A stretch of DNA of 64,000 nt from Blastocatellia bacterium (GTDB lineage Bacteria > Acidobacteriota > Blastocatellia > DASRDY01): assembly GCA_035652355.1 (NCBI GenBank), contig DASRDY010000170.1:9037-73036 (forward strand), given 5' to 3'. Below are positions 5,390 to 15,242 of this stretch, piece by piece. The notes under the pieces are model-generated. The model did not search any database, was not told where the DNA came from, and worked only from the letters and a program-made list of their open reading frames with translations. The position numbers were made by a program, and so were the translations under genes. How positions within the stretch are numbered: position 1 is the first letter of the stretch; the number at the start of each line of letters is the position of its first letter.

Positions 5390-6385
5390 ATGCCTCTTGA
5401 TTTTCAACAATCGATCAATCGTATTATGTGCGGGGATGCTTCCGAGGTCTTACGGCAATTCCCAAGTGACTCGATTGACTGCGTGGTTACGAGTCCACCT
5501 TACTGGCGGCTGCGTGATTATGGGGTTGCTGGGCAATTAGGACTCGAACCGACATTTGAAGAATATATCGAAAACCTTTGCAAAGTCTTTGATGAAATTC
5601 GAAGAGTCCTGAAGCCTTCCGGTACCTGCTGGGTGAATTTAGGCGACACGTATGCCAGCGGTCGAAACAGGAACAAAAATTTCAGTCCGCGCTATGGACA
5701 CGCTTCAGGTGCACGAAAGCGGGAAGCGATTCGGCCGAGTGCTACAACATCGCTTCCTCCAAAATGCCTCCTTCAATTGCCGTCCCGGTTTGCTTTGGAA
5801 ATGACAGCGCGTGGCTGGATTCTGCGCAACGAAATCATTTGGCATAAGCCGAATGCGCTACCGGCAAGTGTCCGAGACCGGTTTACGGTCGATTTCGAAA
5901 AGTTATTATTTTTCGTCAAAGGCAAGCGCTATTATTTTGATCAAGATGCAGTCCGAGAGCCATACCAAGCGCAATCAATTGCACGAATGAATCGCGGAGT
6001 TTCGAACAACCACAAAAACTTGCACGTACCCGGCCAAACGGTGCAAGGAATGCACAGGTCCAGGGCTCGCGGTGATGGTACTAAAGTGAATCCTTTTGGA
6101 AGGAATAAACGCTGTGTGTGGCGGATTCCGACGCAACCGTTCAAAGAGGCGCATTTTGCTGTATATCCAGCATCTTTGATTGAAACGCCTATTGTGGTCG
6201 GCTGTCCGAAGGATGGGATTGTCTTGGATCCGTTTATGGGCAGTGGCACAACAGCGGTTGAGGCTCTGCGACTCGAACGGCGCTTTGTGGGAATCGAACT
6301 TAATCCTCAATACATCAAAATTGCTCAACGAAGAGCCGCTGACATCATCCTTCGGCCGGACTACATCAATTCGGCGTGTATCTAA
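5390..6385 (+). CDS. DNA methyltransferase (N4-cytosine/N6-adenine, beta-class, DNA methylase N-4/N-6 domain). It is apparently an orphan, with no restriction endonuclease gene adjacent.
   Basis: Motif IV is DCVVTSPPYWRLRDYG (SPPY). The C-terminal AdoMet motif I is LDPFMGSGTTAVEA. Confidence 0.85.
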   Translation: MPLDFQQSINRIMCGDASEVLRQFPSDSIDCVVTSPPYWRLRDYGVAGQLGLEPTFEEYIENLCKVFDEIRRVLKPSGTCWVNLGDTYASGRNRNKNFSPRYGHASGARKREAIRPSATTSLPPKCLLQLPSRFALEMTARGWILRNEIIWHKPNALPASVRDRFTVDFEKLLFFVKGKRYYFDQDAVREPYQAQSIARMNRGVSNNHKNLHVPGQTVQGMHRSRARGDGTKVNPFGRNKRCVWRIPTQPFKEAHFAVYPASLIETPIVVGCPKDGIVLDPFMGSGTTAVEALRLERRFVGIELNPQYIKIAQRRAADIILRPDYINSACI

Positions 6386-7349
6386 AGATTTCGTCAAACT
6401 TCATGCCTTCCGAGTCAAACTGGGTTTGCCCCACGTGCTTTGAATAAATGAGCTTCCCATCCTCCATCACCTGAAATGTGCCGCTCCACCCGCCAGGAAT
6501 CGATGCGTTCCACAGCGTAAATTGAAAGAGATTTTCTTTTCCCTTCAGGATTTGATTCGAAACGTCGATCCATTGGCCGACACCTTGATGACTTCCGTTA
6601 TTGGGATCGCCCCATTTTGTTTCCGTGATCATCGTTCCGTTGAGGAAGCAGCGTGCGACATCGTCAGCGTCAGTCACCCGAATTTGCACCTCGTGTGTCC
6701 AATTGGCGAGTCGTTCGTTGGCCTTATTCCCCCACTCTGTTCCAGGAAATTGCGCTGCAGTTTGACGAAAGTAGTCTCGCGCTTGCTGTTTCTGTCGAAG
6801 TTCATATGTGGCATCAGCCATTGTATAACTTGCCTCGGCGGCATGAGGTCCTGAAGGGTAAAGTGTGAGATACCGTTTGGCTCCGTCAACTTTATTTGAC
6901 AACCCGTATTCGGCTTGGACATAGGCGGCAAAAAAGAACTCCCCATCATTATCCAATGACGGATTGAACGTCTTTGCCTTCATCAAGGCCGCATAGGCAT
7001 CGACTTGTTTCGTCTTCATCAGATATTTGGCAATGTCATAACAGCGCTTGCTGGCAGCGGGTTTTAATCCTTCATCGAGAACGAAGGCTGTGTTGAACTC
7101 CTGATCAGCAGCACTTGATTGGCCCAAGCCAAGATAGGTTACCCCCAGCAGCATGTGAGCTTCCGCATTTTTCGGATTGGTTTGAATCTCTTGCTTGAGC
7201 AGAATTGCAGCCTGATCAAACATTCCGGCATCAAGAAACTCTTTAGCCTTGGCAACCTCTTTTGAACCAGAGCACGAGGTGAGTGATAAGGCGATTAAAA
7301 GCATCACAATAGCGTTTAGACAAGGCCACTGCTTCATAAAACTCCTCAA
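6366..7349 (-). CDS. TPR-repeat lipoprotein
   Basis: Signal peptide plus lipobox LTSC. TPR-like A/L/Y-rich repeats are present (MFDQAAILLKQEIQTNPKNAEAHMLLGVTY). Confidence 0.6.
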   Translation of the reverse strand: MRSFMKQWPCLNAIVMLLIALSLTSCSGSKEVAKAKEFLDAGMFDQAAILLKQEIQTNPKNAEAHMLLGVTYLGLGQSSAADQEFNTAFVLDEGLKPAASKRCYDIAKYLMKTKQVDAYAALMKAKTFNPSLDNDGEFFFAAYVQAEYGLSNKVDGAKRYLTLYPSGPHAAEASYTMADATYELRQKQQARDYFRQTAAQFPGTEWGNKANERLANWTHEVQIRVTDADDVARCFLNGTMITETKWGDPNNGSHQGVGQWIDVSNQILKGKENLFQFTLWNASIPGGWSGTFQVMEDGKLIYSKHVGQTQFDSEGMKFDEIFRYTPN

Positions 7350-7575
7350 TTCGTTCGTGAACCGCTGTACTTAAATCCCTGCGTAAGAATGAATGCGGAG
7401 GTCCAGTCCTGACAGCCGCCTTCTCTTTATCTCAGGTATTCTGTTATTCTTCGCTGCAATGATCGATCCGCCAGGATTGGCCACGTGTTGAACACGTCCT
7501 GCCTGCGTCTCTTTTTGGCAGATCAATTAAGAACCCACATTCTATGGAGAAATATCCATAACGACAAGCAAAAAG

Positions 7576-7884
7576 ATGCCTCTGACCAGGAGGTGTCTGA
7601 TGGGGCGTAAACAGCGAGAGCGGCCCGAGAAGCTCGCCGAAAAACTGCTGACGATCAGACAAGCGCTTGGATTTTCGCAGACGCAAATGTGGAGAGCCCT
7701 CGGTCTTGAAGAGAAAAGTAGCTATCACATCATTAGCTACTTTGAAAACGGGAAGCAAGAGCCTTCAATTCTGGATTTGCTGAGGTATGCTCGCTTGGCA
7801 CACATTTCTCTGGAGATACTCGCTGATGATGAACAAGAATTACCGGTAAGAATTACAAAGAAAAAGAAAGTTCCCCGCGAATAG
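7576..7884 (+). CDS. Small HTH (XRE-like) DNA-binding protein, paralog A
   Basis: The sequence LLTIRQALGFSQTQMWRALGL...ISYFENGKQEPSILDLLRYARLAHISLEIL is clearly paralogous to the convergent ORF 7914..8186. Confidence 0.6.
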   Translation: MPLTRRCLMGRKQRERPEKLAEKLLTIRQALGFSQTQMWRALGLEEKSSYHIISYFENGKQEPSILDLLRYARLAHISLEILADDEQELPVRITKKKKVPRE

Positions 7885-7913
7885 AATCGCTTTTATTCAA
7901 TTGCTGTTCAGTT

Positions 7914-8186
7914 CTATTTTCTGTGCAGCAGATGCTTTGGCAGGTCAACCTCATCATCAATGAGCACCTCTGCGTTTACCTTCGCAAGCCTGGCGTACTT
8001 TAACAAAGTAATATACGAAGGTTGCCGTGTACCTTTTTCAAAGTGACTTATATGAGCATTATGAACCGGTGATTTTTCGGTCGTCAGCTGTGCTGCCATC
8101 TGAGGCTGGCTTAATTCAAGGCTCTCGCGTATTTGTTTCAGCTTTATAGCCAAGCGATCCGGTTGCGGTCTTACTTTACGTCCCAT
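7914..8186 (-). CDS. Small HTH (XRE-like) DNA-binding protein, paralog B
   Basis: The sequence LKQIRESLELSQPQMAAQL...ISHFEKGTRQPSYITLLKYARLAKVNAEVL has the same architecture and length as 7576..7884. Confidence 0.6.
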   Translation of the reverse strand: MGRKVRPQPDRLAIKLKQIRESLELSQPQMAAQLTTEKSPVHNAHISHFEKGTRQPSYITLLKYARLAKVNAEVLIDDEVDLPKHLLHRK

Positions 8187-8371
8187 CAGGACCTCCTGAG
8201 GGACTTTCTATGTGCTTAACGCTTCGTAGATATTTCAGTTGCTTTCTTCGCCTATTTAGGCGACGATATTGTTTGTTGAATCGGTCCGCCGCCATGAGCA
8301 GGCAGAACTTACCGTGCAAGCTTGCCAGCCGGATCGATCATTTTTGCAGATCATAGCATAAGGCCAGCGCG

Positions 8372-9130
8372 ATGCAGGACCTGAAGGCGCATTTACATCA
8401 TTGCTTTTGTCTTCTACTGACAGCGCTCCTGTTCCTGCAAATCCCCTATCCAGTGCAGCCCAAGGACACGGCAGATGACGCAGCGATTAAACATGTCCTT
8501 GCGCCATTTGCCGGTCGCACTGTTGACGGCATCTTTATCTACCTCGATCAAATCAGACCAGCACCCGTCAAAGACAGTGATAAACAGTTTCTGATGCGCA
8601 ATATGTCAATCCTCACTGGAGAAACCGGCGTCCGTGATCCAGCGTTGCTTCAGAAACTCAGACAGAAGATCCGCCCTGCTTTGGCACTCCACCGGCGTAT
8701 CCAAGTAGTTGATCTCTATGTTTTCCGTTATCCCTATCCAGTTGCCATGAACAAGCCTGGAGCATTTGTAGCGTTAAGCACTACGATGCTCGATTTGATT
8801 GGCGACGATGAATCGTCCCTATTGGGCACAGTTGCTCACGAATTAGCTCACGAATACGTTGCCTCAGAACACTTTGAAGCTTTGCAGAAACACGATCTTG
8901 CAAAAATGCGGGAATTGGAATTGTTCTGTGATGTCGTAGCTACGGCGACGCTCGTTGCTCTTGGACTTGATCCAGCCCATTATGCATCGCTGCTTGAGCG
9001 GGCAGTGAACTCTTCGCCAGAAGCGGCAAAGATGAATAACGGCGAGAGAGAAATGCCAAATGTTGTGGTGCGAAGACGGTTAATTGCCGAGGTCGCTGCA
9101 CAGCTTACCACCTCAAACTCCTCACATTAA
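8372..9130 (+). CDS. Secreted HExxH-motif protein, a putative zinc metallopeptidase-like protein
   Basis: An N-terminal hydrophobic signal region. The HExxH motif reads VAHELAHEY. No confident family assignment. Confidence 0.4.
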   Translation: MQDLKAHLHHCFCLLLTALLFLQIPYPVQPKDTADDAAIKHVLAPFAGRTVDGIFIYLDQIRPAPVKDSDKQFLMRNMSILTGETGVRDPALLQKLRQKIRPALALHRRIQVVDLYVFRYPYPVAMNKPGAFVALSTTMLDLIGDDESSLLGTVAHELAHEYVASEHFEALQKHDLAKMRELELFCDVVATATLVALGLDPAHYASLLERAVNSSPEAAKMNNGEREMPNVVVRRRLIAEVAAQLTTSNSSH

Positions 9131-9468
9131 GATATCGCTCTTATGTACTCAACGCTTTTCCGCATCAAAGGTTCTCGCACTCAGTCTGTATTGACAGACC
9201 GTTCTGATACATATTCGATATTGACCTATGTTAAGAATGGGCCATAAAATACTTTGCGGCCTACGTTCACCCTGGTTTGAGCCCAGAACAGGTTAGTCCT
9301 ACCGTGAAGCCTGAGACCGTAATATTCAATTAGGAAATCAATTCGCCGCCTTTAACTAAAACAGACGGGTTCATCGAAATCAAGCCTGAAATAAGCCGTT
9401 TGGCCCAGTGATGTGTGGGAATAATGAATACGGTATTATCATACGTTGCTGCTGCCGGGAGGTGCTAA

Positions 9469-12078
9469 ATGCCGTTCAAATTACCGGAAAGTACAACAAT
9501 TTGTCCTGATGATCCAGAAGCGTTATTTCGTGATCTACGAAAGCGCACGATTCCTGGTCTTCTATCGCACCAAGCAGATCTTCTGCGTAGTTATGTGCTG
9601 GTACATACCAAATATCCGGACATCGCCTTGCAGCTACCAACTGGCAGCGGAAAGACGCTCGTAGGATTGCTCATCGCAGAATGGCGGCGCAGAAAATATG
9701 GCGAACGTGTAGTGTACCTATGCCCGACAAGACAACTTGTAAACCAAGTTGCTCACCAGGCCAACCAGAAATATGGCCTTGATGTCCATGCATTCACGGG
9801 ATACAAGAAGAACTATGACGCCAGGAAATCTGCTGATTGGCAGAGCGCTGAAATAGTTGCGGTGACCAGTTATAGCAGTCTGTTCAACATTAACCCTTTC
9901 TTTTCTGATCCAAACTTAATCATCCTCGATGATGCCCATTCGGCGGAAAATTACATTTCGGCTTTTTGGTCTTTGCTGATCGAAAAGTCGAACGCGAATC
10001 ATGAATCAACATTTGCGGCACTGATGAGCATAATAATGCGTTTGCTGCCTAGCTACGATAAATCCCGGCTATCTGCTAGATCTAGCGGACCTGAAGATCA
10101 GCAGTGGGTCGAGAAATTGCCAACTCCAGTGTTCCAAAGCGTTGTGGATGAAGTTATTCCCTTACTCGATGAGTATACCCAGCAATCCGAACTGAAATAT
10201 CCATGGAGGTTGTTACGAGATTCGCTGTCGGCTTGTCATCTTTACGTCTCAAGACAAGCAATTCTCATTCGACCATTAATCCCTCCTTCAAATAATCACT
10301 TACCGTTTTCCGGAGCGAAGCAACGTCTTTACATGTCGGCAACACTCGGAGCAGGCGGCGACCTTGAACGAGTCACGGGTCGTCAACCAATACACACAAT
10401 CCCGGTTCCAGTAGGTTGGGATAAGCAGGGTATTGGCAGACGATTTTTCGTCTTTCCTCGACGTTCTTTTGATGACAGTGAAGCCGAAGGTTTCGCATTA
10501 AAAGCGATTGACCTGGCATGCCGGGCTCTATACCTCGTACCCGACGAGCGCTCTGCCGAGAAGGTCAGGGCACTTATCAAGAGCAGTCTTTCCTGCACTA
10601 CATTTGATGCTACTCAGATTGAGGAATCAAAGGAGCCTTTCGTGCAAAGCAAGAACGCCGTCGCTGTGATTGCAAACCGCTACGATGGTATTGACCTTGT
10701 TGATGACGATTGTAGGCTTCTTTTGGCTGACGGGCTCCCAGGTGGCGCAAATCTTCAGGAGCGTTTTTTCGTTCTTCGGGTAACTGCTCAGCTACTGTTA
10801 GAAGATCGAATCCTAACTCGTCTTGTCCAAGGGTTCGGCCGCTGTACTCGTTCACCAAACGATTATGCCGCTGTTGTGATCTTAGGTGAAAATCTAAATA
10901 AGTATTTACTCGATAAATCCAGAAGACGGTTTTTTCATCCCGAGATTCAGGCTGAACTCGAGTTTGGTATCGACCAGTCAAAGACCGACTCAATCGATGA
11001 TATGCTTGATCAACTTAAGCATTTTTGGGGGCAGGACGGTGATTGGGAGCAAGCAGATAACGCAATCGTAGCACTCAGAAACGGATTAACACAACACACG
11101 CTCCCTGCTACCAGAGAACTGGCGGATTCAGTGATTCCGGAGTTGGCCTACCAATATGCACTTTGGAATGCTGATTTCATTACAGCTCTTGAGCAATGTC
11201 GGGTGGTAATAAGCAAACTTACACATGAAGATCTTCGGGGATATCGTGCTCTTTGGTTGTATCTGGCCGGTTCGGCAGCGTGGCTAGCGTGCCAGAATGG
11301 TCAACTTCAAGACAATGAAATCGCTAAGGATTACTTCCGTAAGGCTCAGGCCGCAGCTCCCGTACTACGCTGGCTAATAGGGTTACAAGCAGACAGCGCT
11401 GATGCTAATTCTTCCTCCATCGTGATCAATACACAGCTAGTGACGATGATTGAGAGATTGGAATCCATATTAGAGAATATGGGCACAATACATGATCGAA
11501 GATATGCATCTGAAGAAAGCGCGATTCTCAACGCCCTGTTACAGAATTCAGATGGCAGGCTTTTTGAGAACGGTCGAGAACGGTTGGGGCGGTTGCTTGG
11601 TTACTCTACTGGAAATTCCTCAGAAGATGGAGCGCCTGACCCTTGGTGGATTGCAGACGATTCACTTTGTTTCGTATTCGAAGACCATGCCGAGGGAAAT
11701 CCCGAAACTGTATTTTCTGTTACTAAAGCCCGTCAGGCGGCTTCACATCCAGACTGGATAATGATAAATTTGCCGGAATGTCAGTCTGCCGAAGTCATCT
11801 CTGTGCTCGTCACTCCTTGCACACGTGCTACAAAGGGTGCAATTCCATCGCTGAAGAAAGTGCGCTACTGGAATTTGGTTGAATTCCGTTCGTGGGCACA
11901 AAATGCACTCCGTGTTTTGAGGGAAATTCGCCGAGATTTTCCTGGGCCTGGCAATTTGAAGTGGAGAACCGCCACCGCTCGAAAGCTCAGCGAAGCTAAC
12001 ATAGCCCCGCAGCAACTCAAGCTCATGCTGTCGCAAACAGCAGCAGACGCTATGATGTTGGTTGGTAGCAAGGAATAA
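9469..12078 (+). CDS. SF2 helicase, DinG/Rad3(XPD)-like DEAH-box type, with a roughly 400 aa uncharacterized C-terminal extension
   Basis: Motif I is LQLPTGSGKTLVG and motif Ia is LCPTRQL. Motif II is IILDDAHSAEN (DEAH-like) and motif III is YMSATLGAG. The Rad3-type motif VI is QGFGRCTRSPNDYAAVVILG (helicase C_2-like). There is no Fe-S Cys cluster between motifs Ia and II. A strong SD (GGGAGGTG) precedes the ATG. Its stop lies 5 nt before the next gene. Confidence 0.75.
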   Translation: MPFKLPESTTICPDDPEALFRDLRKRTIPGLLSHQADLLRSYVLVHTKYPDIALQLPTGSGKTLVGLLIAEWRRRKYGERVVYLCPTRQLVNQVAHQANQKYGLDVHAFTGYKKNYDARKSADWQSAEIVAVTSYSSLFNINPFFSDPNLIILDDAHSAENYISAFWSLLIEKSNANHESTFAALMSIIMRLLPSYDKSRLSARSSGPEDQQWVEKLPTPVFQSVVDEVIPLLDEYTQQSELKYPWRLLRDSLSACHLYVSRQAILIRPLIPPSNNHLPFSGAKQRLYMSATLGAGGDLERVTGRQPIHTIPVPVGWDKQGIGRRFFVFPRRSFDDSEAEGFALKAIDLACRALYLVPDERSAEKVRALIKSSLSCTTFDATQIEESKEPFVQSKNAVAVIANRYDGIDLVDDDCRLLLADGLPGGANLQERFFVLRVTAQLLLEDRILTRLVQGFGRCTRSPNDYAAVVILGENLNKYLLDKSRRRFFHPEIQAELEFGIDQSKTDSIDDMLDQLKHFWGQDGDWEQADNAIVALRNGLTQHTLPATRELADSVIPELAYQYALWNADFITALEQCRVVISKLTHEDLRGYRALWLYLAGSAAWLACQNGQLQDNEIAKDYFRKAQAAAPVLRWLIGLQADSADANSSSIVINTQLVTMIERLESILENMGTIHDRRYASEESAILNALLQNSDGRLFENGRERLGRLLGYSTGNSSEDGAPDPWWIADDSLCFVFEDHAEGNPETVFSVTKARQAASHPDWIMINLPECQSAEVISVLVTPCTRATKGAIPSLKKVRYWNLVEFRSWAQNALRVLREIRRDFPGPGNLKWRTATARKLSEANIAPQQLKLMLSQTAADAMMLVGSKE

Positions 12079-12083
12079 ATCTA

Positions 12084-15000
12084 ATGACCAATTTTGTCCT
12101 CCCATTGGATGCTTTTATCCGTGCTGTAGGAGCAAGTCGTAATGTTCCACATGCGCTTTTCCTCGGTGCTGGCGCTTCAATAACGTCGGGAATGCCTTCG
12201 GCTCAAATGTGTATCTGGGAATGGAAACGGAATATTTTCCTAACGAACAACCTCGGCCTTGAACCCCAATTTGCAGAGTTGTCTCTTGTCAGCGTCCGGG
12301 ACCGTATACAGCGTTGGCTAAATCGGCAAGGGATCTATCCGCCTAATGGCGCACCTGAAGAATACAGTGTCTATATCGAGGCTTGTTTTCCGATTGCAGA
12401 AAGTCGACGATCCTTTTTTCAAGAGAAAGTTCGCGCGTCGGTACCACATATAGGTTATAAACTCCTTGCCCTCTTAGCATCTAAATCACTGATAAAATCT
12501 ATATGGACCACTAATTTCGATCAGCTAGCAAGCCGATCGGCTTCGGCATCGAATGTTGTGCCGGTTGAGATTGGTCTGGACTCTGCTCATCGCATAGTGA
12601 GGCCCACTAGAGCCGGTGAGTTGCTCATTGTGTCCTTACATGGCGATTATCGCTATGATCATTTAAAGAACACAAGCGAAGAGATAAAACGACAGGAGCA
12701 GGATCTTGAACTCGCATTAATTGAAGTAGTGCGAAGCTCCCCTGTTATTATCTCAGGATACAGCGGACGAGATGAGTCGATAATGGTGGCATTATGTTGT
12801 GCCCTAGAACAGAAGGGGTCTAGTCCTTTGTTCTGGTGCGTTCAGGATTCGGATAATGTGCCTAAATCTGTTCTTGATTTGATTTCTAATGCTCGCGCTT
12901 GTGGACGTGAGGCATATATCATCCCAACACAAGGATTCGATGACGTCATGATTCGACTCGCGCTCCATTGCCTTGACGGAGATACTCAAGCTCAAGCAAC
13001 ACGACTAATCGCACAGAATAGTGGGAGTCTAGGCACATCACGGCCTGCCTTCCGAATCACTACTTCCACTCCAATAACGGTCCTTAAAAGTAATGCTTTT
13101 GAAATTGAATGCCCATCGGAGCCGATAGCCTTTGAGCTAAAAAATTGGCCGAAGGAAAAGGTTTGGACGTGGGTGCGAGAGCAAACAGCGGAAAAGACTG
13201 TGACGGCGGTGCCGTTTAAAGGGAAGATCTTTGCCCTTGGGACAATTGAGGATGTGCGAGCCTGTTTTGGGAACAATATCAAAGATATTCCTCGGCCTAC
13301 GCCTCTTCCGGAGGGAAGCCTTCGGTTTGAAGATGGCGCTATCACCTGTTTAATGCGTGAGGCGTTGGTTCACTCCATAGTTCTGGCCACCGGACTTCGT
13401 TCGGATGGATCACGTGAATTATGGGCTGAGGACACGGTTCATGACGAGTCGTTAGAGGGCGAATTGTTTCGAATTTTTGAGTCGGTTCATTTAACCCTTC
13501 GTCAGATTGACGGACGGTCATTTCTCATACTTAAGCCCTCAATCAAAGTGCTGACCATTTCAGGAGATACCGTACCTACTTTGAAGTCCAATGCTTTGAA
13601 GTTGCGGATTCTCGGCTGGCAACACAATAAGGAATTTAATCAAGCTGTCAATTTCTGGCGGAAAAGGCTTTTGACGACTGACCGCTCGGAGAGAATCTAT
13701 GAATATCCTTTTAAGAGCGGCGCTCCGTTCAGGTTCTCAATTCGTCGATCACCCGCTTTTGCGGAGATCACCAGTGATAGAGGAGCACGTGGTATTAATG
13801 TCGACACAAAAATCCGTCCACTGCTTATACAAAAAGGACTTCAAATTGATGAACCGAGACTAGTGTTTTGCAATAGGTCTGGAACGGGTAACGTCAAGAA
13901 CGTACATCCGGTCAGAGGATTGTTGAGTAATCGGCCATTCGATTTTCCGCTTACTATGCGAGGATTAAGCAGCGAAATCCGGATGGGAGTTGTGTGTCCG
14001 AAAGCAGAGGCGAAGGCACTTCAATCGTATCTGATGCGGTCGGAACAACAGATTGAGCCTAACCGTCAAGAGTTAGATTATCTCCCGTCTTATCCTGGGT
14101 TTAAAAATGCTTTCGGTTTGGAACTCAAAATTGGAGATCAGGGTAATGCCGGATGGGTCATCTGCCCTGAACCAAATGGACAAAACGATCAAGCCAATGC
14201 ATTGGAGATCGGTAAAAATATTAACAGATCAATTGATACTCTTCAGGCTTCCTTTGCACCAAACCTTGTGCTCATTTTTTTTCCTGAACGGTGGTCGCGT
14301 TTTCGCGGATACAATACAGACCACGAACATTTTGACGTTCACGACTTTGTCAAAGCCAGCAGTGTTCAAAAAGGCATCGGGACACAGTTTTTGGACCAAA
14401 GTACTTTGGCTGATGGACTTCAATGCCGAGTGTGGTGGTGGCTGTCACTGGCATTTTATGTCAAAGCGATGCGCACGCCCTGGGTTCTCGATGAACTCGA
14501 CAGAAACACTGCATTCGTCGGGCTCGGGATGAGCTACGACTTTAGCCGCGATAAAAATAAACATATCGTTCTCGGATGCAGTCATATATACAGTTCACGC
14601 GGCGAAGGACTTCAGTATCGCTTGAGTCCAGTCGAGAATCCAGTTTTCTTCGGAAAGAATCCGTTCTTATCGCGAGACGACGCAAGACGTGTCGGAGAGC
14701 AGGTTCGTGAACTGTTCTTTGAGTCCCGGTCAACCCTGCCCGACCGAGTTGTAGTTCATAAACGCACAAGATTTACAAAGGACGAACAGCAAGGACTGAG
14801 AGAAGGGCTTAGCGGCGTGTCGGAGATCGACATGCTGGAAATCATAATTGATGATGCCTTACGCTACGTAGCTTCGGCCGCTGATGCGCGAGGACTTCTG
14901 CACGAAGACAATTATCCGGTTCAACGAGGAAGTGTTGTTCGACTTGACGATTTTACAGCCCTCTTGTGGGTACATGGCGCCACTTCGGCAATCGGCAATC

Positions 15001-15242
15001 GCCGTTATTATCAAGGAAAAAGGCGAATACCGGCTCCTCTTAGGATCAGACGCCACGCAGGGCAATCTGACGTAAAGATTCTTGCAGAAGAAATTCTGGG
15101 TCTTTCAAAAATGAACTGGAACACATTTGATTTATATACGAAGTTACCGACGACGGTTCAGTCATCAAACGAAATCGCCAGGATCGGATCACTCCTTACT
15201 CCTTTTCACCCTCGGGGGTACGATTTCCGATTGTTCATCTAA
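12084..15242 (+). CDS. Fused SIR2-APAZ-PIWI protein (short prokaryotic Argonaute with an N-terminal SIR2 NADase-like domain; SPARSA-like, single polypeptide)
   Basis: The N-terminus has the SIR2-like Rossmann motif HALFLGAGASITSGMPS. The C-terminal about 450 aa has a MID/PIWI-like pattern: FVKASSVQKGIGTQFL, AFVGLGMSYD, RVVVHKRTRFTKDEQQGL and RRIPAPLRIRRH at the C-terminus. There is no RDG/DEDX catalytic pattern, which fits an inactive short pAgo. The 1052 aa length fits SIR2-APAZ-Ago fusions. Confidence 0.6.
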   Translation: MTNFVLPLDAFIRAVGASRNVPHALFLGAGASITSGMPSAQMCIWEWKRNIFLTNNLGLEPQFAELSLVSVRDRIQRWLNRQGIYPPNGAPEEYSVYIEACFPIAESRRSFFQEKVRASVPHIGYKLLALLASKSLIKSIWTTNFDQLASRSASASNVVPVEIGLDSAHRIVRPTRAGELLIVSLHGDYRYDHLKNTSEEIKRQEQDLELALIEVVRSSPVIISGYSGRDESIMVALCCALEQKGSSPLFWCVQDSDNVPKSVLDLISNARACGREAYIIPTQGFDDVMIRLALHCLDGDTQAQATRLIAQNSGSLGTSRPAFRITTSTPITVLKSNAFEIECPSEPIAFELKNWPKEKVWTWVREQTAEKTVTAVPFKGKIFALGTIEDVRACFGNNIKDIPRPTPLPEGSLRFEDGAITCLMREALVHSIVLATGLRSDGSRELWAEDTVHDESLEGELFRIFESVHLTLRQIDGRSFLILKPSIKVLTISGDTVPTLKSNALKLRILGWQHNKEFNQAVNFWRKRLLTTDRSERIYEYPFKSGAPFRFSIRRSPAFAEITSDRGARGINVDTKIRPLLIQKGLQIDEPRLVFCNRSGTGNVKNVHPVRGLLSNRPFDFPLTMRGLSSEIRMGVVCPKAEAKALQSYLMRSEQQIEPNRQELDYLPSYPGFKNAFGLELKIGDQGNAGWVICPEPNGQNDQANALEIGKNINRSIDTLQASFAPNLVLIFFPERWSRFRGYNTDHEHFDVHDFVKASSVQKGIGTQFLDQSTLADGLQCRVWWWLSLAFYVKAMRTPWVLDELDRNTAFVGLGMSYDFSRDKNKHIVLGCSHIYSSRGEGLQYRLSPVENPVFFGKNPFLSRDDARRVGEQVRELFFESRSTLPDRVVVHKRTRFTKDEQQGLREGLSGVSEIDMLEIIIDDALRYVASAADARGLLHEDNYPVQRGSVVRLDDFTALLWVHGATSAIGNRRYYQGKRRIPAPLRIRRHAGQSDVKILAEEILGLSKMNWNTFDLYTKLPTTVQSSNEIARIGSLLTPFHPRGYDFRLFI

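Follow-up and report, generated by a model that had tools for sequence, protein, structure and literature searches.

Hna is a validated single-gene abortive-infection system whose mechanism was solved only in 2025-26. The protein of S. meliloti is a 3'-5' exonuclease of single-stranded DNA (ssDNA), held in an ATP-stabilised autoinhibited dimer and released from it by the phage single-stranded DNA-binding protein (SSB); its nuclease is repressed by physiological ATP, it stops at duplex junctions, and it neither unwinds duplexes nor cuts RNA. SPARSA systems of type S1A, known as a single chain (PgSir2-Ago) or as two genes (GsSir2/Ago), are built on short prokaryotic Argonautes (pAgos): in GsSir2/Ago, a 5'-phosphorylated RNA guide and an ssDNA target activate a SIR2 NADase, and both the activation mechanism and the source of the ssDNA target are still under study. 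Hna and SPARSA have never been connected before, and no published pairing of Hna with an Argonaute was found in a literature search that left the neighbourhood analysis of the original Hna paper (Sather 2023) outside its scope. Here, we describe an operon in a stretch of 64,000 nucleotides (hereafter the window; contig DASRDY010000170.1) from a metagenome-assembled genome (MAG) of a Blastocatellia bacterium (Acidobacteriota), in which a gene for an Hna-family helicase/nuclease is followed directly by a gene for a single-chain SPARSA protein. The reading that we favour, and to which we assign a probability of about 0.57, is that of a conserved, translationally coupled defence operon uniting two complete immune proteins, each of which acts alone in other lineages. 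The locus combines two kinds of defence system that are already known and is not a categorically new one, and this combination suggests an undescribed dual-effector Argonaute defence module.

The two genes are co-oriented on the forward strand (+), as are all the features of the operon given below, and both start with ATG in the list of open reading frames (ORFs). The upstream gene (9469..12078; GenBank HZS45839.1) encodes the helicase/nuclease of 869 aa, assigned to the Hna family (PADLOC PDC-S28), and the downstream gene (12084..15242) a SIR2-APAZ-MID-PIWI short pAgo of 1052 aa, that is, the single-chain SPARSA protein. The TAA stop of the former lies at 12076-12078 and is separated by a 5-nt gap from the ATG of the latter at 12084. 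Each gene has a Shine-Dalgarno (SD) sequence of its own: GGGAGG (9457..9462), read from the sequence 6 nt 5' of the helicase ATG, and AAGGAA, which lies within the 3' end of the helicase gene and makes up the gene junction (12065..12086) together with the TAA, the 5-nt spacer and the pAgo ATG. The coordinates and the presence of an SD sequence before each gene agree with the original prediction, an earlier reading of this DNA made from its letters alone, which had proposed a DinG/Rad3-like helicase tightly coupled to a SIR2-pAgo.

Profile and structure comparisons place the upstream protein in the Hna family. The PADLOC PDC-S28 model PDLC04987 matches residues 10-825 over profile positions 14-811 of 846 (E = 1.3e-104), and PDC-S28 proteins are those that DefenseFinder calls Hna. 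With phmmer, the S. meliloti Hna chain (PDB 10uj_A) is matched at E = 2.8e-37 and ~21% identity. The best Foldseek match of the AF2 model (pLDDT 87.9, pTM 0.85) is the Hna monomer 9yhn, aligned along the whole chain (E = 4.3e-38, 881 columns, TM 0.64/0.68), whereas XPD, CasDinG and DinG, which come next in the fold ranking, match the helicase core only (E ~1e-11, TM ~0.35). The N-terminal part is a DinG/XPD-like SF2 ATPase core made of HEL1 and HEL2 (~aa 1-482; 9469..10914), recognised by the Pfam families DEAD (50-162), ResIII and Helicase_C_2 (360-477) and bearing a reduced Arch-like helical insert at aa ~179-255. The motifs from which a helicase had been proposed are all there, namely PTGSGKT at 57-63 (Walker A K62), DDAH at 154-157, SAT at 290-292 and motif VI QGFGRCTRS at 454-462 (Q454-R461), and all four are invariant across 90 relatives. 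The proposed lack of an Fe-S cluster was also borne out: across the relatives there is no conserved set of four cysteines between motifs I and II, where C85 is the only conserved one, and no Pfam match to DEAD_2 was obtained in the helicase. In this respect the protein departs from DinG/Rad3 (XPD) helicases proper, which have an Fe-S domain (DEAD_2) and a full Arch.

Beyond the ATPase core, what had been taken for a long unique C-terminal region is a helical linker followed by the PD-(D/E)XK nuclease of the Hna family, which the earlier reading had missed. The linker is all-helical (~aa 483-710; 10915..11598), with AF2 helices throughout 483-710 and a profile match to PDC-S28 alone, and the C-terminal nuclease (~aa 711-869; 11599..12075) has an alpha/beta core at 713-822 in the AF2 model. 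The C-terminus aligns weakly to the Hna PDxxW...FECK motif, and the nuclease site that we propose consists of D724 (in PDPWW), E738, K753, Q756 and H760, all but K753 being conserved among the relatives. At the ExK position, where S. meliloti Hna has the canonical lysine (K729), the window protein has His740, a substitution that could have meant an inactive nuclease. This possibility was rejected on the perfect covariation of position 740 with position 753, which lies 13 residues past the ExK position on the next helix (aa 740-753 correspond to positions 11686-11727 of the window): across 91 family members a lysine is found at one of these two positions, never at both or at neither (18/18 and 73/73). 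Since the lysine appears to have migrated to 753, the Hna-like PD-(D/E)XK site looks functional and would be intact despite the shift.

The likeness to S. meliloti Hna (PDB 9YHN/9YKJ/10UJ) includes length (845 vs 869 aa here) and domain order, that is, a HEL1-HEL2 core of the DinG/XPD-type SF2 class, no Fe-S, a reduced Arch and a C-terminal PD-(D/E)XK domain. The two differ in the catalytic lysine, which belongs to the ExK motif in Hna (K729) and sits on the next helix, at 753, in the window protein. They also differ in organisation: Hna is a single-gene system, whereas in the clade of the window the gene is always translationally coupled to a pAgo (relatives at up to 61% identity stand alone). 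By everything testable bar standing alone, gene 1 is thus to be classed, from its sequence and its model, as a member of the Hna / PDC-S28 family. The idea that the helicase is a new accessory has therefore to give way to that of a complete member of a known, autonomously acting family.

The downstream protein had been read as a fused SIR2-APAZ-PIWI protein, an assignment upheld both by profile searches and by SPARSA-type chains of the PDB. In PADLOC, the fused pAgo model PDLC02384 covers residues 4-1052 (1277 bits) and the Aga_SIR2-PNTD1-PNTD2 model PDLC02420 residues 9-1052; a SPARSA-type Sir2 superfamily chain (PDB 8in8/8jkz type; E = 5e-34) aligns with residues 21-359, and the Piwi domain protein 8in8_C (E = 1e-43) with residues 590-1051. 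The SIR2 NADase (~aa 1-300) and the APAZ region (~aa 300-565) are encoded by 12084..13778 and correspond to the only Pfam match of the pAgo, SIR2_2 (residues 139-257, E = 3.4e-10), and to PADLOC PDLC02419 (residues 20-561); the MID-PIWI short Argonaute part (~aa 583-1052) is encoded by 13830..15239 and is matched by PADLOC PDLC02436 over residues 583-1052. The FLGAGAS Rossmann motif of SIR2, noticed earlier, is present, and its GAGAS (residues 28-32) is invariant in relatives, like N144, H186 and D230; in GsSir2, D230 and the H186 loop are functionally defined residues. Invariant, too, are H753, K757 and Q768 of the MID domain, with a spacing identical to that of H166/K170/Q181 in the 5'-phosphate pocket of GsAgo. 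Judged from these residues, the NADase and the pocket for the guide 5'-phosphate appear to be intact. The PIWI domain is predicted to be catalytically inert by its end-to-end homology to the SPARSA-type Piwi chain, whose catalytic residues are reported to be substituted.

GAGAS, N144, H186, D230, APAZ, the H-K-Q pocket and PIWI are all shared with the S1A systems, both the single-chain PgSir2-Ago and the two-gene GsSir2/Ago, and gene 2 can be regarded as a bona fide single-chain SPARSA (S1A) in every testable respect bar standing alone. The difference lies in the company that it keeps: the described systems have one or two components without a helicase or nuclease, whereas the clade of the window always has an Hna-like gene upstream. 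The gene was deposited as HZS45840.1, a 'hypothetical protein' of 689 aa, and this record is without the entire SIR2 domain because its annotated start is at an internal GTG (residue 364); the JGI/ENA copy has the full 1052 aa.

The strict linkage proposed for the two genes was followed from both sides. On the pAgo side, the analysis drew on 80 metagenomic loci, of which those that extend for 200 bp or more upstream of the gene counted as informative. A helicase gene lies directly upstream in 15/15 informative loci in which the pAgo is at least 59% identical to that of the window, and in 0/57 of those at or below 58% identity (Fisher p = 9e-16). On the helicase side, all four of the relatives checked between 76% and 63% identity, P0001 (76%), P0024 (71%; from an Acidobacteria MAG), P0052 (67%; on a Schlesneria chromosome) and P0057 (63%), have a 1053-aa SIR2-pAgo directly downstream, while none of four relatives at 54-61% identity (P0061, P0066, P0072 and P0076) has a pAgo; these adjoin Qat, type I restriction-modification (R-M), Hachiman or integrase genes instead. 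Some two dozen more pairs can be supposed from longest contigs of identical length in the two lists of homologs. Hosts of the linked pair include Blastocatellia, another Acidobacteria MAG, Schlesneria and Pirellulaceae.

The junction between the genes is conserved along with the order. An overlap of 1, 4 or 8 nt between the helicase stop and the pAgo start, of the TAATG, TGATG, TAGTG or ATGA type, is seen in 19/20 linked loci and comes with an internal GGAGG SD. The window has the sole non-overlapping junction of the 20, with its 5-nt spacer and the weaker SD AAGGAA.

This linkage is real but confined to one sub-clade of each family. Within these sub-clades the claim of strict linkage, and with it the expectation of synteny, holds across many genomes for the homologs of both genes; beyond them it fails, in that most Hna-like and most single-chain SPARSA genes stand alone. 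A family-wide linkage was rejected, a pAgo being found in 1/80 genomic Hna-like loci at 34-53% identity, with no neighbour that recurs. Neighbour-joining (NJ) trees gather the 18 linked helicases, out of 94, into a clade with no other members, and do likewise with the 15 linked pAgos out of 70, from which it follows that the pairing arose once. The pairwise identities of the two genes correlate (r = 0.80, Mantel p ~2e-4). The flanks of the linked loci are unrelated, save between near-identical contigs, and amount to ~11 unrelated contexts; neither a third conserved gene nor shared flanks were found among the linked loci. The genes therefore form a two-gene cassette that has been kept and moved as a unit through at least Acidobacteriota and Planctomycetota, and that the pair is a selected unit seems to us very likely indeed.

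The single pAgo-bearing locus among those 80 is L074 (3353-9485) of Mesorhizobium intechi, a second juxtaposition of an Hna-like gene with a SIR2-pAgo, in which the Hna-like gene is divergent from a SIR2-APAZ (938 aa)/pAgo (499 aa) gene pair across an intergenic region of 343 bp. It was considered as an independent recurrence and rejected, since relatives of its SIR2-APAZ/pAgo at 91%, 79% and 71% identity are without an Hna-like gene; the juxtaposition is probably a coincidence. The nearest unlinked relative of the helicase, P0061 (61%; locus L166, 9617-14426, and locus L167), adjoins a Qat-like cluster of QatB, TatD and KAP-NTPase genes. At locus L170 (3198-10573), the HamA-HamB pair of Hachiman is followed at a distance of 4 nt by an Hna-like gene and this in turn by a TIR/Mrr_cat gene, an arrangement that may be a further composite operon centred on an Hna-like gene. 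On plasmids, the linked clade was not found: 106 PLSDB plasmids, from Enterococcus, Streptomyces, Mycobacterium, Sinorhizobium and others, carry Hna-like genes, none of which reaches 60% identity with the window protein; one E. coli plasmid copy is interrupted by an IS91 transposase.

Partnerships of an Argonaute with a helicase and/or a nuclease have precedents in DdmDE, in the triads of pPIWI-RE with REase and DinG, and in the ACE1-pAgo pairs. DdmDE, the plasmid defence of Vibrio cholerae, is likewise a two-gene operon in which a helicase-nuclease is partnered with a catalytically inactive Argonaute, and DdmD, which combines an SF2 helicase with a PD-(D/E)xK domain at its C-terminus, is an ssDNA nuclease kept as an autoinhibited dimer that target-bound DdmE opens. 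DdmE, however, belongs to the long-C pAgos, carries an INS docking domain, is guided by DNA and lacks an enzymatic effector, whereas the window pAgo is a short pAgo fused to a SIR2 NADase and is without the insertion. Homology of the window helicase to DdmD was considered and rejected, as no PADLOC match to DdmD was obtained with the full protein or its C-terminal half and none was present in the top 50 Foldseek matches in the PDB. The triads described by Burroughs et al. (2013), for which a role in guide-dependent restriction was predicted, resemble the pair of the window in joining PIWI, a DinG-like helicase and a REase-fold nuclease in a tight operon with overlapping termini. They are made up of three genes, though, with a DinG that has a Cys-rich Fe-S region and a PIWI of the RE type; the operon of the window has two genes, its helicase and nuclease form one Hna-type protein without Fe-S, and its Argonaute is a classical short pAgo with SIR2-APAZ. 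In PADLOC, classical pAgo models match the window pAgo at E = 0, and the PprPIWI model only at 7e-17. The operon thus resembles DdmDE and the triads but belongs to neither. Ryazansky et al. (2018) reported that orthogroups of helicases and nucleases occur near pAgos at large, without finding defined operon compositions. Of the claim that this is an undescribed helicase-plus-Argonaute system, the part that stands is that no paper on this pairing was found; as a concept, the partnership already exists in DdmDE and the triads.

A working scheme can be drawn from what is known of the two families. The pAgo part would load 5'-phosphorylated small RNA guides and, so loaded, would recognise complementary ssDNA of the invader, and this recognition would turn on NAD+ hydrolysis by SIR2. 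In the same response the Hna-like partner, as an ATP-restrained ssDNA exonuclease, would be unleashed on DNA. The coupling might be physical, with the target-bound Argonaute recruiting its partner or handing the DNA over to it, as DdmE does for DdmD. Alternatively it might be metabolic: the collapse of NAD+ would lower ATP and lift the ATP-dependent autoinhibition of the nuclease, possibly with the aid of phage SSB, and such a coupling would explain why no new domain is needed, since Hna would be released without protein contact. Either way the outcome would be a dual-effector response, in which metabolic arrest is joined by DNA destruction. That the two proteins cooperate functionally in some manner is, in our judgement, somewhat favoured by the evidence. 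The more specific proposal that target-bound SPARSA recruits or de-represses the Hna-type protein, by breaking its autoinhibited dimer or by collapsing NAD+/ATP, so that one guide-dependent event triggers both effectors, is put forward tentatively; physical recruitment of the DdmDE kind, taken by itself, is doubtful.

The explanation that competes most directly with a cooperating pair is that two autonomous defence systems were welded into one operon, sharing a promoter and translational coupling with no biochemical cross-talk. It can be elaborated into a layered defence with complementary sensors, in which the Hna-like protein would sense phage proteins such as SSB and degrade ssDNA, while SPARSA would sense invader nucleic acid and deplete NAD+; we regard the welding as possible rather than probable, and this elaboration of it as an equally speculative one. 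Several observations count against integration of the two proteins and sit comfortably with welding. Both are complete and unchanged in architecture with respect to their standalone relatives, from which they differ by no clade-specific indels and by only 14 (pAgo) and 19 (helicase) scattered diagnostic substitutions. Nothing resembling the INS docking domain of DdmE was seen in either of them. No fusion of Hna with a pAgo was found in the 150 best-ranked representatives of 1.84 billion proteins, among which the longest relative of the pAgo has 1160 aa. Both families, moreover, are autonomous in experiments, where one gene suffices for Hna and one chain for PgSir2-Ago; Hna-like genes are promiscuous in defence islands, where they lie beside Hachiman, Qat and R-M genes and integrases; and the pairing arose just once, the sole other juxtaposition, at L074, being coincidental and not conserved. 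Co-divergence and non-separation, furthermore, are also expected for independent genes welded by overlapping codons; evidence of integration beyond linkage is scarce. On the other side, the pair is unseparated in 19/19 informative loci despite ~40% amino-acid divergence, unrelated flanks and a distribution over at least two phyla, a timescale on which neighbours in defence islands are usually reshuffled, as the variable neighbours of standalone Hna-like genes illustrate. The overlap of stop and start with a conserved internal SD, too, is typical of subunits of fixed stoichiometry.

The model of the original prediction gave the helicase an upstream, accessory role, in which it would unwind double-stranded DNA of the invader or make guides for the pAgo, and activation of the NADase would depend on it. 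This has some attractions: SPARSA needs ssDNA targets and 5'-phosphorylated guides, the helicase is the first gene of the operon, the linkage is strict within the clade, and ACE1, a PD-(D/E)XK nuclease of the Cas4 family co-encoded with long-A pAgos, acts together with the pAgo against invading DNA. Target sensing driven by the helicase is, however, at odds with the published biochemistry of Hna, a 3'-5' ssDNA exonuclease that halts at duplex junctions and is restrained rather than driven by ATP; the guides of SPARSA, besides, are RNA, which Hna cannot make. As pAgo relatives of identical architecture exist without the helicase at 55-58% identity, and PgSir2-Ago works alone, the pAgo has no intrinsic need for a loader, and we consider an accessory helicase improbable. 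Chance adjacency of two unrelated defence genes in an island of one genome, finally, could have been suspected from the habit of Hna-like genes to lie beside other defence genes and from L074, in which such a juxtaposition is indeed coincidental. It is refuted by the linkage counts (15/15 against 0/57), by the overlapping codons, by the co-divergence of the two genes and their exclusive clades in both trees, and by the retention of the pair in ~11 unrelated contexts, and its probability is negligible. A conserved, translationally coupled operon of two complete immune proteins is therefore the reading that we retain.

In the window, the operon is preceded by an intergenic region of 338 bp, in which a candidate sigma-70-like promoter, TTGACC-18-TAAAAT (9221..9250, +; 10/12 match), can be recognised; promoter and terminator scans gave counts not above shuffled expectation, and the promoter is to be taken as a candidate only. 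Further upstream, four genes occupy 5390-9130. They comprise an N6/N4 DNA methyltransferase (5390-6385; a type II methyltransferase in PADLOC) with no obvious partner endonuclease, two XRE-type helix-turn-helix genes whose ends face each other (7576-7884 on the + strand and 7914-8186 on the - strand), and an ORF of 252 aa (8372-9130) with a metalloprotease-like HELAHE motif and no family match. Together with the operon, these four genes look like a small defence islet flanked by housekeeping genes.

For the annotation of genomes, such an operon would provide a rule: a PDC-S28/Hna gene directly upstream of a single-chain SIR2-pAgo is to be treated as one unit. At the level of the families, the Hna-SPARSA pair would be the third independent partnership of an Argonaute with a helicase-nuclease, after DdmDE and the pPIWI-RE triads, and would argue for a general design principle. 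It would also illustrate how whole defence systems can be joined into modules of a higher order, and it would offer a natural system in which to test whether abortive NAD+ depletion is wired to nuclease effectors, for instance through ATP-gated release of Hna. If the two proteins act independently, the operon would be a clean example of the long-term genetic welding of two systems. If, instead, recruitment or de-repression of the Hna-type protein by target-bound SPARSA proves true, the operon would represent a convergent partnership between a pAgo and a helicase-nuclease, and in it a short pAgo would for the first time have a second effector, acting in trans.

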